Source of the DNA: a virus
Taxonomy: Duplodnaviria; Heunggongvirae; Uroviricota; Caudoviricetes
Length of the DNA stretch: 4,512 nucleotides
Strand: one strand, 5' to 3'
Virus record (IMG/VR): IMGVR_UViG_2695420658_000008
Part shown: piece after piece, positions 1 to 4,512 of the stretch
How positions within the stretch are numbered: position 1 is the first letter of the stretch
Layout of the letters: the number at the start of each line of letters is the position of its first letter
Notes under the pieces: model-generated
Seen by the model: only the letters and a program-made list of their open reading frames with translations
Told to the model about the DNA's origin: nothing
The model's database searches: none
Position numbers and translations under genes: made by a program

Positions 1-44
1 ATTATCTGAACATAAAACACTATCAATAAGTTGGAGTCATTACC
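1..44 (+). mobile_element. IS1 insertion sequence, terminal 44 bp (IRR end); body of the element lies upstream of the window
   Basis: Seen in sequence: 1-44 ATTATCTGAACATAAAACACTATCAATAAGTTGGAGTCATTACC matches, from memory, the right terminus of IS1 ending in the inverted repeat ...CAACTTATTGATAGTGT / GGTAATGACTCC. Composition switches from AT-rich to GC-rich phage-like coding DNA at 44/45. The reverse complement of 4485-4512 is identical to 17-44. Not verified by alignment. Confidence 0.85.
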
Positions 45-638
45 TGCGCCCCCCTGTGGAATGTAGTAATAACGTTCCATAACGCGGGCACGCCATATTT
101 CCAGATTTTCAATATCTTCACCGTCTGTAATGGTGTCAGCGTACCCTGTGGACGGCAGACCACTGACGGGTGTTCCCAGTTGCATGGCAATACCATCATC
201 CGTATTCCCCGCCGATCCCGGTTCGTCTGCCACAACAGGCACCCGGAGAAGACCATCGGCTGCGGTCACCGTCGCCGTCGTGGTAAAGGTCACCTGATTA
301 TCACGCTGGATCTGCGTTCCCGCTGGCAATACCGGCGTCCCCTCTACGCCATCCCAGCGCACAAATCCCCGGGCTGCCACCGCTTCTTTTCGCGGGCAGC
401 GTTTGATTCTGGCGTGCCGGTACAGCCAGTCTTCATCACACACGTCCGGTAACAGATTTCTGGCAAGATAATCGATATACCCGTACAACGTGTGTACGGC
501 TGCAGCCTGTACACGGGCATACACTTCCGCATCCATACGACGAAGCAGCGTATCCTGCTCAAAGCGGGTTAATAAATCGCTCCGGATCATAGAAATAAGT
601 TGCGGGAGGCCGGGGCGATAAAACTGACTGTCAGCCAT
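45..638 (-). pseudogene. Baseplate J-family protein (Mu gp47-like), 5' portion only (198 native codons); 3' end replaced by IS1
   Basis: Own translation of the minus strand from ATG at 636-638: MADSQFYRPGLPQLISMIRSDLLTRFEQDTLLRRMDAEVYARVQAAAVHTLYGYIDYLARNLLPDVCDEDWLYRHARIKRCPRKEAVAARGFVRWDGVEGTPVLPAGTQIQRDNQVTFTTTATVTAADGLLRVPVVADEPGSAGN..., open with no stop down to position 45 and on through the IS1 end to the window edge. The LYGY.DYLAR...A.G.V...G..G..PAGT pattern is typical of phage baseplate J proteins. Start overlaps the upstream gene stop by 8 nt. Missing from the ORF track because no stop codon occurs in the window. Homologues are longer as far as I recall, so truncation is inferred. 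Confidence 0.7.
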
Positions 639-1041
639 TCAGTTCACTCCAGATATCATCAAAAATAATGTTGTGAATATTGCCGTCACGCTGGTAAATG
701 GTAATGGCAAGTGCCAGCGAGTCTGTCCCGGTCCGGACAGCGTTAATATCAAGACGGGAAGCAACACCATCCTCCACCATCCACGCCAGCGCCTCACGGA
801 CATAATCTCTGGCAAGCTGCGGGGTTTTATTTGTCAGCTTGCTGCGTCGCAACAGATACAAACGCGACCCCGTGCGATCATTCTGAACCGCAGGCCAGGT
901 ATCCCCCCACCATCCAAATATCCGTGGTGCATCATCACGCCCGGCACGCCGCCATGTAAAAAGCGAAATAATCACAGCACGCGTCAGAAGGTCGATCGAA
1001 GCCCCGGTCGACACGGGTCGCCCGTTAACATTAATCATCAT
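631..1041 (-). CDS. Small baseplate protein, Mu gp46-like (gp25/gpW-type wedge component), 136 aa
   Basis: Complete ORF MMINVNGRPV...IFDDIWSELNG with TGA stop at 631-633. Size and position (between the gpV-like spike gene and the baseplate-J-like gene) fit the Mu gp46 slot; the assignment rests on synteny and size rather than on a motif I can name. Tandem ATG ATG start at 1036-1041. Confidence 0.6.
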   Translation of the reverse strand: MMINVNGRPVSTGASIDLLTRAVIISLFTWRRAGRDDAPRIFGWWGDTWPAVQNDRTGSRLYLLRRSKLTNKTPQLARDYVREALAWMVEDGVASRLDINAVRTGTDSLALAITIYQRDGNIHNIIFDDIWSELNG

Positions 1042-1046
1042 GATTT

Positions 1047-1580
1047 TCAGCCCATCGGTTGATCCGGCGTGTCAGTGATCCCGCCACCATCACCATTTTC
1101 GGTATGTTTGTGGGCATTGTAGGCCTGCCGCATTTGCTGCATGCTGAGTCCGCCACTGTCGCAATTGTCAGTAATATCGGCGGTGGATTCGACTGGCATT
1201 TCAAAGCGCGCTTTAGGCGCGTTTTTAAAAATTATGGCCTTCCCGGCCCCGTCCACCACAATACCGGAACGGGTCAGGACAACGGACTGTCCCAGATCGT
1301 CATAAAGCGCCACTTCCCCACGTTTCAGTCCTTTCAGCCGGTAACGTCTGTCAGCCACGACCACAACCACACCATGAGAACGATCGCCCGCCGGAAATAA
1401 AGCAACGCCCTCAGCACCGTTCTGTGCGGCAGATGTAAAACCATAAGGTTCAAGGTGCTCAACGTGTTGTTTCTGATCTCCGGCTATCATTTTCAACCCT
1501 ACAGACTGACACTTTCTGGCGGAATCCACCGCCGTGATGACAGCCCGGGAAATCAGATTACGAAGAGAAAACCCGTTCAT
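1047..1580 (-). CDS. Baseplate central spike protein, gpV family (Mu gp45/Q-like), 177 aa
   Basis: Complete ORF MNGFSLRNLISRAVITAVDSARKCQSVGL...GVALFPAGDRSHGVVVVVADRRYRLKGLKRGEVALYDDLGQSVVLTRSGIVVDG. The RAVITAVD and FPAGDRSHGVVV segments resemble the conserved N-terminal OB-fold of phage baseplate assembly protein V. A strong Shine-Dalgarno GAGGAGG sits 7 nt upstream of the ATG. The start overlaps the 3' end of the hub gene by 23 nt. Confidence 0.75.
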   Translation of the reverse strand: MNGFSLRNLISRAVITAVDSARKCQSVGLKMIAGDQKQHVEHLEPYGFTSAAQNGAEGVALFPAGDRSHGVVVVVADRRYRLKGLKRGEVALYDDLGQSVVLTRSGIVVDGAGKAIIFKNAPKARFEMPVESTADITDNCDSGGLSMQQMRQAYNAHKHTENGDGGGITDTPDQPMG

Positions 1581-2640
1581 CAGAAATCCTCCTCAACATT
1601 TTTTTCTTCCTGGCGGTAACAGGCTCGGGGAGATAAGCATCTGCCGGGCCAACCCGTAATTCAGTCGTCGTGCCCCGGTCGTCCTGGTTATAGGTAACTT
1701 CTGCGATCACCAGTTCATCATTATCAAAATTATTCAGCGGGTCGAAAACGATGACAGATAACCCCGGACGCCATAACGCGCCACTGCCCTGCCGCCAGCC
1801 CTGAACCGTATATGTTGTCTCACGGGTAAGCGCAGCCCGTTGGCGCGCTTCAAATTCACAACGGGCCTTACAGGTTGCTGTCGTTGCTGTGCCTGACTGC
1901 TGAATCAACAAAGGGCGATAACGGGTCACGCCACTGTCCTGAATGGTCTGACGTATTGCGGCAATGGTGGCCTCACCAAAATCATCGTCGTTGCCCGGGC
2001 GCTGCCCACTGACCTGATATTCAGAAAACCGCTCTCTGATGCTTCTTTCCGTGTCACAGGAAAGAATATTCTCTCCCAGCACCAGCACCAGCGCCGTCGC
2101 CGCTTTACCTGTTCCGGGTTTTCCCAGAACCAGTCGCCCGCATTCATCGTCATAAGCCAGCGTCTGAACCTGCCCCAGTAACCGGTTAAGACAATCGGCA
2201 ACGGTTTCGCCGTGTTCCGGCTGGGCATCAATCACCGCTGTCTGCGGCACGCCAGCATCAACAACGGTGATGCCAAATGGCGCAGCCAGTTCACTGACTA
2301 TTCTGAGCAGGTTTTTTCCGCTCTGCTGGAGTGGCAAAGCAGAGCAGTCAACCAGATCGGCTGTTTTGCTTCGCCCGACAATTCCCATGCTGACGCTGCT
2401 GGCGTCATAACGAAGCGGTAGTGCCTCCACATATCCGGTGAGCACAGGCTCATCCCCGATAAGCACTTCAACCAGCTCACCATTTTTTATCCGGGGTTGA
2501 TAATCCCGGCTTCCGGGCCAGCGGGTGGTAATGGCAACATTAAAATCCCGGGCAATACGGTTAATGCCCGCACTGATACGGACGGATGTCCAGCCGCCCC
2601 ATTCGCGACCGGAAACCCGAAGTAAAACGGTATCATTCAT
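1558..2640 (-). CDS. Baseplate hub protein, phage late control gene D family (Mu gp44/P-like), 360 aa
   Basis: Complete ORF MNDTVLLRVSGREWGGWTSVRISAGINRIARDFNVAITTRWPGSRDYQPRIKNGELVEVLIGDEPVLTGYVEALPLRYDASSVSMGIVGRSKTADLVDCSA..., with the hallmark gpD / Mu P architecture (GY.E......D...V...GR..T.DLVDCS). ATG at 2638-2640 overlaps the TGA of the upstream gene (ATGA), implying translational coupling. TAA stop at 1558-1560. Confidence 0.85.
   Translation of the reverse strand: MNDTVLLRVSGREWGGWTSVRISAGINRIARDFNVAITTRWPGSRDYQPRIKNGELVEVLIGDEPVLTGYVEALPLRYDASSVSMGIVGRSKTADLVDCSALPLQQSGKNLLRIVSELAAPFGITVVDAGVPQTAVIDAQPEHGETVADCLNRLLGQVQTLAYDDECGRLVLGKPGTGKAATALVLVLGENILSCDTERSIRERFSEYQVSGQRPGNDDDFGEATIAAIRQTIQDSGVTRYRPLLIQQSGTATTATCKARCEFEARQRAALTRETTYTVQGWRQGSGALWRPGLSVIVFDPLNNFDNDELVIAEVTYNQDDRGTTTELRVGPADAYLPEPVTARKKKMLRRISDERVFSS
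1588..1594 (-). promoter_or_regulatory. Ribosome-binding site (GAGGAGG) for the gpV-like spike gene, embedded in the 3' end of the hub gene
   Basis: Minus strand reads GAGGAGG ATTTCTG ATG; plus-strand CCTCCTC at 1588-1594, ATG at 1578-1580. Confidence 0.6.
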
Positions 2641-4056
2641 CTGACGGGTACCCTTAATGCCCTGACCGGAACAAAGCCCGGATGAGAGATGGCATTTCGA
2701 TCCAGGATATCAGTTTCACGGGACGCATCGTCGTACCATGACGCAGCCAGAACAAGCGCAGGCAGAACTTCCGCTGGCGTTCGCTCTGCGGTTTCCTCCG
2801 TCTGAACCAGACGCGCCTGAATATCCCGGTTCAGTTCTGTACGTAATGACGTCAGCTGAAAAAACAGCCTGTCATCCGCCGTACGCCTGAGCTCCTGTTC
2901 AATCGCCGCGTTCAGCGATTTGCGTATGATGGTGAGATTTTCCCGCGTGGGTGGTTGCGCTCTCTCATCCTGTCCTGTGCTGGCTGCCACGCTGTCAAGT
3001 GCCGGATGAGAAACGTGAATAATATCGGACTGACGTTCAGTGGAACCACCAACAGCCACAACCGCCTGCTGATTTTTCACCAGGCTTCCGGGTTGTGGCA
3101 GTGAAGTGACCGCCCTTGTGGCTTCGCTGATTGCCGTCGTCCGGATGACAGCAGCCACAAGGTTTGTCTGCTGTTTTTGCCTGATAACCGATGCGGAATC
3201 TGTGGGCCACACCGCACGCGGTGCCAGTCCTGGGTCCAGCGTAATGCCGGACATTGTCGTTATGGACTGCACCAGATCCTGTGTGTTATCCACCAGCCGG
3301 GTTCCGGCCCGCCAGGTATCCTGCAACGTATGCACAAAATCACTGGCAACCGACGGCGGCATCAGAATGACGGATAAATCGCCCTGCAGTAGTCTCGCTC
3401 CGGCAGAAACAGCCGAATTAACCATTTTGAAAGCTGTCTGAACGGTTCCCAGCATATCGGTCGTCCGGGCAATAACATCGTTCTGAATAAAGTCCGGTAT
3501 TCCCGCGAGATCAAAATCGCCGAACATGTCTTCAATCAACTCATCCAGGAATACGGACGACTCCTCCAGTTTTCTGGCGGTTGCAGCTCCGGCGACCGGA
3601 AATGACAGTTCCCCGCTCTCAACAAACTGAAATGAAACCCGGCACATACGGCCTTCAGTGCCGGAGTGAGAAACGGTCACCTGCCCGTCAATACAGCCCT
3701 GCATTTCACCGAACTGCGGNNNNNNNNNNNNNNNNNNNNNNNNNNNNNNNNNNNNNNNNNNNNNNNNNNNNNNNNNNNNNNNNNNNNNNNNNNNNNNNNN
3801 NNNNNNNNNNNNNNNNNNNNNNNNNNNNNNNNNNNNNNNNNNNNNNNNNNNNNNNNNNNNNNNNNNNNNNNNNNNNNNNNNNNNNNNNNNNNNNNNNNNN
3901 NNNNNNNNNNNNNNNNNNNNNNNNNNNNNNNNCCTCGTCGCTCTCCACCGAAAACGGAACGCCACGAAATGAAGCGTCGTAAAGATTATCGCGCCAATTG
4001 ATACCTGAAGATGCAGAAAAGAGTGAAGAAAGAGAAGGTAAAGAAGGTAAGTCCAT
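2637..4056 (-). CDS. DNA circulation protein (Mu gp43/N-like), interrupted by a scaffold gap; true length unknown
   Basis: N-terminal segment 4056..3933 encodes MDLPSLPSLSSLFSASSGINWRDNLYDASFRGVPFSVESDE, containing the W.D.L..ASFRGVPF signature of DNA circulation N-terminal domains, with GGAG 5 nt upstream of the ATG. Segment 3719..2637 encodes PQFGEMQGCIDGQVTVSHSGTEGRMCRVSFQFVESGEL...RALRVPVR and is continuously open. The two segments sit in different frames relative to the 213-N placeholder, as expected if the gap length is arbitrary. The ORF-track start at 4067 (METVWTYLL...) is an artefact of reading across the gap. Confidence 0.75.
3720..3932. other. Assembly or scaffold gap (213 N) inside the DNA circulation gene
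   Basis: Uninterrupted run of n from 3720 to 3932, flanked on both sides by coding sequence of the same gene. Confidence 0.95.
4025..4051. repeat. About three tandem 9-bp units (GAAGGTAAA-like) encoding the Ser/Leu/Pro-rich N-terminal extension (LPSLPSLSS) of the DNA circulation protein
   Basis: Plus strand gaagaaaga / gaaggtaaa / gaaggtaag at 4025-4051; the last two units differ by one base. Unit length is a multiple of 3, so copy-number change would stay in frame. Confidence 0.5.
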
Positions 4057-4061
4057 ACTGT

Positions 4062-4065
4062 CTCC
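4062..4065 (-). promoter_or_regulatory. Ribosome-binding site (GGAG) for the DNA circulation gene
   Basis: Minus strand reads TGGAGACAGT ATG; GGAG is 5 nt upstream of the ATG at 4054-4056. Confidence 0.5.
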
Positions 4066-4070
4066 ACTAT

Positions 4071-4094
4071 AAAAAAACCGCCAATTTCTGGCGG
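4071..4094 (-). terminator. Rho-independent terminator for the upstream AT-rich ORF (minus strand)
   Basis: Perfect 6-bp stem CCGCCA / TGGCGG (4078-4083 and 4089-4094) with a 5-nt loop, followed on the minus strand by TTTTTTT (complement of 4071-4077). It lies between the stop of the AT-rich ORF (4103-4105) and the start of the DNA circulation gene (4056). The plus-strand side has only a weak T tract. Confidence 0.7.
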
Positions 4095-4102
4095 CTTATA
4101 TA

Positions 4103-4484
4103 TTAATCATCATTAATATCTTTCATATTCAATTTGCAATTTTCGTAGGTCACTCCCGACTCGCCATTAACATTAACTCCAGCTCTGATATTCCCGTTTT
4201 CTTTTACATCTACAAAAAACTGGCCTCTTGGCATCTTGAACGCAAATGTAAAACCAACAGTATCTGAATCAAAATCATCATCTTTATATATTGGGATCAA
4301 AAATGTCATCGTCGCTGGTGATGCATTGTTTGCAAAATCAAATACACCTATACTTTTGCCGAATTCATAAGAAGCTTTTCTCAATATAATCGCACCGCTG
4401 GCAGAAGGGGATGGGCACGATATCCTCAGTTGTCTGAATCCATCTGTATCCAAGTCAACGTCATTATCTGCAGATGTTTTAACG
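4103..4484 (-). CDS. Hypothetical protein, AT-rich ORF fragment of unknown function (127 native codons); 5' end interrupted by IS1
   Basis: Open frame ...VKTSADNDVDLDTDGFRQLRISCPSPSASGAIILRKASYEFGKSIGVFDFANNASPATMTFLIPIYKDDDFDSDTVGFTFAFKMPRGQFFVDVKENGNIRAGVNVNGESGVTYENCKLNMKDINDD with TAA stop at 4103-4105. It has no native start codon near its 5' end and reads straight into the IS1 terminus at 4485; the TTG start at 4498 in the ORF track lies inside IS1. Composition is markedly more AT-rich than the tail genes. I recognise no family. Confidence 0.4.
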
Positions 4485-4512
4485 GGTAATGACTCCAACT
4501 TATTGATAGTGT
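4485..4512 (-). mobile_element. IS1 insertion sequence, terminal 28 bp (IRR end), inverted relative to the copy at 1-44; body of the element lies beyond the window end
   Basis: 4485-4512 GGTAATGACTCCAACTTATTGATAGTGT is the exact reverse complement of 17-44 and matches the IS1 terminal inverted repeat as recalled. Identity stops exactly at 4484/4485 and 44/45, where the unique flanks diverge. Confidence 0.75.

Follow-up and report, generated by a model that had tools for sequence, protein, structure and literature searches.

Two IS1 insertions and the ends of a short baseplate-gene contig from a degraded phiP27-like prophage of Shigella sonnei

What does it mean when a short contig of phage tail genes begins and ends in the same insertion sequence, with the two ends facing each other? 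This question is raised by the window analysed here, a 4,512-nt stretch of DNA held as an IMG/VR virus record (IMGVR_UViG_2695420658_000008). The original prediction offered two readings: a composite-transposon-like or IS-scarred prophage remnant, or a draft contig that had broken at IS1 repeats. We consider it highly probable (about 0.95) that the window comes from a Shigella sonnei chromosome as a draft contig or scaffold of short reads, and that it spans the stretch of a degraded phiP27-like prophage bounded by two independent IS1 insertions. Such a structure is unremarkable and was known before, being present in published complete genomes.

The two ends of the window can be assigned to IS1 directly. 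Positions 1-44 (plus strand) are the last 44 nt of an IRR end, with the element lying to the left in standard orientation and its terminus at 44. At the other edge, positions 4485-4512 (minus strand) belong to a second IS1 in the opposite orientation, whose IRR end contributes its first 28 nt and whose body lies to the right. Both carry the IS1 terminal inverted repeat (IRR end GGTAATGACTCCAACTTATTGATAGTGT...). A repeat search of the window returned 17-44 and 4485-4512 as inverted repeat arms of 28 nt, perfect reverse complements of each other (100%). The chance expectation for such a pair in 4.5 kb is about 1.4e-10; the repeat is real and a chance match is excluded. Supporting the assignment, window 1-44 is identical to the end of the annotated full-length 768-bp IS1 copies in S. 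sonnei Ss046 (L005 8141-8184), and the right junction, on the 4485-4512 side, is likewise identical to Ss046 sequence. In megablast searches, window 1-48 matched a feature annotated 'IS1 family IS1F / insB' and, among plasmids, the IS1B elements of Tn9-type catA1 units. The identity to Ss046 and these annotations bear out the earlier claim of 28-bp terminal reverse complements that match the IS1 IRR. The IS1 content of the contig ends is unequal (44 vs 28 nt), a difference for which a single k-mer rule gives no account.

Between the two IRR ends, both of which abut it, lies a block of 4,440 bp (45-4484), in agreement with the extent of about 4.44 kb first stated, as the IS1 termini fall at 44 on the left and 4485 on the right. 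Its genes are all on the minus strand. The first is a baseplate J / Mu gp47-type wedge gene, of which the N-terminal 198 codons are present (45-638; Pfam Baseplate_J, E=3.5e-24, profile positions 2-134 of 255); the left IS1 cuts this gene, and its remainder (Baseplate_J_C) lies beyond the IS1 in loci L003-L005. It is followed by a GP46-family baseplate gene (631-1041, 136 aa; Pfam GP46, E=4.5e-33), a Mu gp45 / gpV-type baseplate spike gene (1047-1580, 177 aa; Pfam Phage_Mu_Gp45, E=2.1e-26), a Mu gp44 / GpP-type baseplate hub gene (1558-2640, 360 aa; four GpP/Gp44 Pfam domains) and a DNA-circularization (Mu gp43-type) gene (2637-4056; Pfam DNA_circ_N, E=3e-36, and phrog_184 'baseplate hub', both on the Ss046 copy). 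Last comes an orphan gene represented by codons 35-160 and its stop (4103-4484), cut by the right IS1 and intact in E. coli (L001 10030-10512). The predicted content of five phage baseplate genes and an orphan ORF thus held, with Pfam confirming the tail genes and returning no match for the orphan. The DNA-circularization, gp44, gp45, gp46 and gp47 genes, syntenic and on one strand, form a baseplate module of the Mu / phiP27 type. The block is a piece of a dead, degraded prophage adjoining ssrA/smpB, and its tail module is Mu-type.

Relatives of the block are found with and without the insertions. E. coli genomes hold window 44-4484 without interruption (11 matches, H1-H11), and the Stx2e phage phiP27 (NC_003356) aligns to window 44-4060 at 96.5% identity, sharing the baseplate wedge, assembly, hub and DNA-circularization genes. 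However, phiP27 is a complete phage without IS1 insertions and without the orphan ORF (the match ends at 4060), whereas the window is a remnant. The closest counterparts are in finished S. sonnei chromosomes. Each of the two 44-nt junction sequences has a single exact match in each of 4 complete chromosomes, including that of S. sonnei Ss046 (CP000038), and wherever a complete genome has the junctions, they lie in the same prophage. The Ss046 prophage remnant (about 2.885-2.902 Mb) and the other complete S. sonnei chromosomes show identical junctions and the same genes. Compared with Ss046, the window is truncated to the inner 44 nt of one IS1 copy and the inner 28 nt of the other, and 185 nt are replaced by an N run, with nothing else substantial to separate them: a single, synonymous difference was found in 4,299 determined bases, and the other three chromosomes share the window allele.

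These complete genomes provide the evidence that decides how the locus is to be read. In Ss046, both flanking IS1 copies (L005 7417-8184 and 12597-13364) are full-length at 768 bp, inverted, 100% identical to each other and 4,412 bp apart, so that the block proposed to lie between inverted IS1 copies is indeed flanked exactly by two of them. The flanks of the window's own isolate are inferred from such near-identical complete genomes; a scan of the genome_contigs set for the exact 44-mer of the left junction gave no match. Length and coding content were judged on L002-L005, the window itself holding only element ends; there the flanking elements are 768 bp and encode InsA / InsAB' (Pfam Zn_ribbon_InsA, HTH_Tnp_IS1, DDE_Tnp_IS1). 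A search for 8-9 bp target-site duplications had been suggested as a check, and a 9-bp duplication was found at each copy in Ss046, with CGTTAAAAC on either side of the IS1 at 7417-8184 and GGGGGCGCA on either side of the one at 12597-13364. The window retains the inner copies: TGCGCCCCC at 45-53, next to the left IS1, is the reverse complement of GGGGGCGCA, and GTTTTAACG at 4476-4484, next to the right IS1, is the reverse complement of CGTTAAAAC. The Ss046 prophage is colinear across both elements, in the normal phage gene order of tape measure, orphan, DNA_circ, gp44, gp45, gp46, gp47 and gp48.

We propose that one IS1 inserted into the baseplate wedge gene gp47 and another into a small orphan gene flanked by the genes for the tape measure and DNA circularization. 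A separate 9-bp target duplication would have arisen at each insertion, with no loss of prophage colinearity, and the resulting copies are inverted, with their IRR ends facing the block. Because the target duplications are separate and colinearity extends beyond each IS1, the two insertions appear to have been independent, simple transposition events. In a colinear arrangement, the outer junction on the tape-measure side is predicted to run ...AGTAACGTTAAAAC joined to GGTGATGCTGCC..., and that on the gp47 C-terminal side ...GGCAGCATCACC joined to GGGGGCGCAGACCC.... Assemblers would then stop within a few dozen bases of entering each IS1 copy, giving the contig ends the look of a terminal inverted repeat; both these ends and the N run are probably assembly products.

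Two other origins of the paired ends have to be weighed against independent insertion. In one, a composite transposon of the IS1-cargo-IS1 kind (Tn9 / Tn1681 type) would have inserted as a unit, with the tail genes as cargo. The shape fits, as two full IS1 copies surround a 4.4-kb segment; Tn9 and Tn1681 also consist of two IS1 copies around a few kb of DNA, and plasmids show a comparable layout in which IS1 pairs flank catA1. These plasmid matches have the Tn9-type arrangement with direct IS1 copies, while the inverted layout of the window is that of Tn1681, in which inverted IS1 copies surround an ST toxin gene. Unlike Tn9 and Tn1681, however, the locus shows no sign of movement as a unit. 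The outer 9-mers in Ss046 differ (CGTTAAAAC and GGGGGCGCA), each matching the 9-mer just inside the IS1 that it adjoins rather than forming a shared outer duplication, and the DNA outside both copies continues the same phage genes, with the gp47 C-terminus on one side and, on the other, the orphan N-terminus and then the tape-measure gene, so the cargo sits in its native phage context. Moreover, the IS1-flanked unit was found in no other context among 5,426 E. coli genomes, 72,556 plasmids and 50,697 phage records; no match covering 1-4512 was found in the E. coli complete genomes, plasmids or phages searched, and the junction-bearing complete genomes all carry it in the same prophage. Matching duplications at each copy, unlike 9-mers at the two outer ends and a colinear prophage together mean that the unit never transposed as a whole. 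A composite-transposon origin, to which we give almost no credence, is rejected on the target duplications and prophage colinearity, and 'composite-transposon-like' stands as a description of shape alone.

In the other, the pair itself would be an artefact, either a single IS1 collapsed onto both contig ends or a chimeric contig. In favour of this, the window is a draft contig whose ends derive from repeats and which contains an N run. However, one IS1 has one IRR end, and therefore two IRR junctions need two copies; in four finished chromosomes both junctions are present, and 4,412 bp lie between two distinct full IS1 copies. A collapsed repeat, named beforehand as a possible refutation, is excluded by these copies, and an artefact of either kind is about as improbable as transposition of the unit. 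Independent insertion of two IS1 copies is thus retained as the preferred reading.

The inverted copies also raise the possibility that the block inverts by homologous recombination, as put forward in the original prediction, and exists as two isomers in the population. Such inversion is physically possible, as long inverted repeats of high identity are present (768 bp, 100% in Ss046) and provide enough substrate for a RecA-dependent event. However, all four complete genomes inspected show the ancestral orientation and phage gene order, and none the other orientation; the genes are relics (gp47 split, head genes absent), and a selectable phenotype is therefore not expected. The window is silent on the matter because inversion leaves inner and outer junctions unchanged, and exact short patterns and exact-protein look-ups are blind to isomers for the same reason, all four junctions being preserved. 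We regard two coexisting isomers as very unlikely. Scarcely more probable is the wider notion that in some S. sonnei isolates the block is inverted, or that IS1-block-IS1 is mobilised via the outer IRL ends as a Tn1681-like composite; if true, this would be a structural polymorphism hidden from short-read data.

Why, then, does the contig end where it does? Among insertion sequences in Shigella, S. sonnei included, IS1 accounts for the most insertion sites (PMC7373316). The collection index lists the exact gp44 protein in 1,509 blocks; the longest contig with this protein measures 2-5 kb in 1,443 of these and >1 Mb in 37. The 2-5 kb size is the signature of assemblies breaking at IS1, and short-read assemblies routinely end there. 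Short reads fail to bridge the 768-bp IS1 and assembly ends inside each copy, which produces the terminal inverted repeat. The window, which extends no more than a few tens of bases into a high-copy IS at either end, resembles other IS-fragmented Shigella short-read assemblies. Both the broken draft contig and the IS-scarred prophage remnant, posed as alternatives, are true together, the latter from the two IS1 copies in a colinear prophage in complete genomes. The locus carries little biological weight: the scar is fixed, has been sequenced before and lies in a defunct prophage of a pathogen that is well studied. It is useful in practice as a worked example. When a short draft contig ends in a terminal inverted repeat, the usual cause is an assembler that stopped at two high-copy IS copies, and target duplications in a finished relative decide whether an IS pair is a composite transposon.

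Several smaller features of the block can be added. The N run (3720-3932, 213 nt) interrupts the DNA-circularization gene, which encodes 463 aa in complete genomes. In Ss046 the corresponding stretch is ordinary coding DNA of 185 nt. The run therefore exceeds the real sequence by 28 nt, an excess that breaks the reading frame and marks its length as an estimate or mask. The C-terminus of gp44 is altered, with an A7 run in the window vs A8 in E. coli. The intact orphan is 160 aa, has a low GC content (0.36-0.39) and a predicted N-terminal resemblance to a lipoprotein signal; apart from phrog_5586 (unknown function), its ORF matches only a single phage homologue, which is 50% identical. Between the orphan and the tail genes lies an intrinsic-terminator-like hairpin on the minus strand (4075-4097), with a 10-pair stem including 5 GC pairs followed by the T run TTTTTATAG; three terminator-like sites were found against 0.3 expected.

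Sequence comparison identifies the window as chromosomal DNA of Shigella sonnei, because both of its 44-nt junctions are present exactly once in each of four complete chromosomes (L002-L005) and it is nearly identical to one of these, strain Ss046 (L005; CP000038). Of the 4,299 determined bases, a single one departs from Ss046 in a base-by-base comparison: window 2596 reads G against C in Ss046, and the substitution is synonymous within gp44. The G is shared with L002-L004 and an E. coli relative, leaving the C private to Ss046 among the sequences compared. The four distinct chromosomes were returned by a look-up of public assemblies with the exact gp44 protein as query. This protein occurs in 1,509 indexed blocks, where the longest gp44-bearing contig measures 2-5 kb in 1,443 and exceeds 1 Mb in 37.

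The first 44 nt of the window (1-44) read ATTATCTGAACATAAAACACTATCAATAAGTTGGAGTCATTACC and the last 28 (4485-4512) read GGTAATGACTCCAACTTATTGATAGTGT. A repeat search recovered the 28-nt inverted pair of the original prediction at the same coordinates (17-44 and 4485-4512, 100% complementary), for which the chance expectation in 4.5 kb is ~1.4e-10, and the enclosed segment (45-4484; 4,440 bp) agrees with the predicted 4.44 kb. Assignment of both ends to the IS1 IRR terminus also holds. With Megablast, window 1-48 matches an 'IS1 family IS1F / insB' feature of a phage record (H45), while both ends match, in thousands of plasmids, the IS1B elements that surround catA1; window 1-44 is identical to the terminus of full IS1 copies in Ss046. 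The IS1 overhangs are unequal (44 nt left, 28 nt right), whereas a single k-mer overlap rule predicts equal lengths; this inequality is probably an assembler product.

Checks for full flanking IS1 copies and for 8-9 bp target-site duplications, as originally proposed, were made in Ss046, and both were found. One 768-bp IS1 lies on the orphan-gene side (L005 7417-8184), with CGTTAAAAC directly on both sides, and a second, in opposite orientation, on the gp47 side (L005 12597-13364; 768 bp), with GGGGGCGCA directly on both sides. The copies are 100% identical to each other, and each has its own 9-bp target duplication. Beyond the orphan-side copy come codons 1-34 of the orphan gene, followed by the tape-measure gene; beyond the other lie the remainder of gp47 (Baseplate_J_C), gp48 and tail-fibre genes. 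The prophage is thus colinear across both copies, whose IRR ends face the block.

The arrangement resembles IS1 composites such as Tn9 and Tn1681, and a composite-transposon-like element was among the options first raised. Had such an element moved in as a whole, one target duplication would be common to its two outer ends, and the DNA beyond them would be foreign. In Ss046, however, the outer ends do not share one duplication, and the DNA outside both copies belongs to the same prophage, so the likeness is one of shape only. Because each IS1 has its own duplication and the prophage continues outside both, the two copies are two separate simple insertions. Within the S. sonnei lineage, IS1 would have transposed here twice independently, inactivating gp47 and the orphan gene. 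Short-read assemblers would then halt soon after entering each IS1, leaving a ~4.5-kb contig in most draft assemblies, because the element is 768 bp long and accounts for the largest share of Shigella's IS insertion sites (PMC7373316). The structure is known from S. sonnei chromosomes sequenced and annotated earlier, and it belongs to no new class; the original prediction correctly read an ordinary, known feature.

Inversion of the block by IS1 recombination had also been suggested. RecA-dependent recombination between the identical inverted copies could flip the block, but all four complete genomes (L002-L005) have the ancestral order and none the inverted one. A crossover inside IS1 keeps the inner (IRR plus block) and outer (flank plus IRL) junctions unchanged, so inversion is invisible to the window and to short-pattern searches, and orientation is readable only from reads spanning an entire IS1. 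Both IS1 transposase genes are directed at the block (L005, + strand upstream, - strand downstream). Read-through transcription into it from both sides is a matter of speculation, and would have no evident consequence, the tail module being dead.

All genes of the block lie on the minus strand. They comprise the first 198 codons of a Baseplate_J/Mu gp47-type gene (45-638; E=3.5e-24, covering only profile positions 2-134 of 255), GP46 (631-1041; E=4.5e-33), Phage_Mu_Gp45 (1047-1580; E=2.1e-26), a GpP/gp44 hub gene with four Pfam domains (1558-2640) and a DNA_circ_N gene (2637-4056; E=3e-36, measured on the Ss046 copy). In gp44, a run of 7 A at ~1598-1604 (-), versus 8 in E. coli FDAARGOS_944, shifts the final codons: the protein reaches 360 aa rather than 351, and the gene overlaps gp45 by 23 nt.

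The DNA_circ_N gene is broken by an N run (3720-3932). Its 213 nt stand for 185 nt of ordinary coding sequence in Ss046, 28 nt fewer, so the run is a gap-size estimate or mask rather than a length-true placeholder, a mismatch that supports draft status, as predicted, or scaffold status. The run throws the two gene halves out of frame, making the gene look frameshifted, and the 476-aa window ORF is therefore an artefact.

After a terminator-like hairpin (4075-4097) comes the orphan gene (4103-4484; codons 35-160 of a 160-aa protein), a low-GC insert (0.36-0.39 versus 0.52-0.57 in the tail genes) that separates the DNA-circularization gene from the tape-measure gene and carries a terminator of its own. 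The protein matched no Pfam family; its sole family match is phrog_5586, where function is unassigned, and it has one phage homologue (ON470603, 50% identity). The intact protein (L001 10030-10512, -, in FDAARGOS_944) begins VIKPFLMTVAILTSCCAQA, which by eye resembles a lipoprotein signal with an LTSC lipobox.

The baseplate region of Stx2e phage phiP27 matches window 44-4060 at 96.5% identity, and the orphan gene is absent from phiP27 and from E. coli relatives whose match ends at 4060 (H12-H30). Several complete E. coli genomes hold 44-4484 without interruption at 97-99% identity (H1-H11), and none of the E. coli genomes, plasmids and phage records searched carries the IS1-flanked version. 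In FDAARGOS_944, the closest uninterrupted copy among E. coli strains (98.75-100% identity), intact gp47 and orphan genes extend past either block edge; a frameshifted ipaH effector gene lies ~5 kb from the block (L001 1-1137).

The Ss046 locus is a heavily decayed prophage. Its head region is replaced by an IS4-type transposase gene and an IS3-family element, which with a Peptidase_S78 fragment marks the site of head-gene loss (L005 1799-2955), and its tail end adjoins the tmRNA gene (18092-18454) and smpB. The ~19-kb region, consisting of the prophage remnant, the tmRNA gene and smpB (18092-19151) and two more genes, sits between two same-strand IS4-type transposase genes (L005 1-1271 and 20133-21083).
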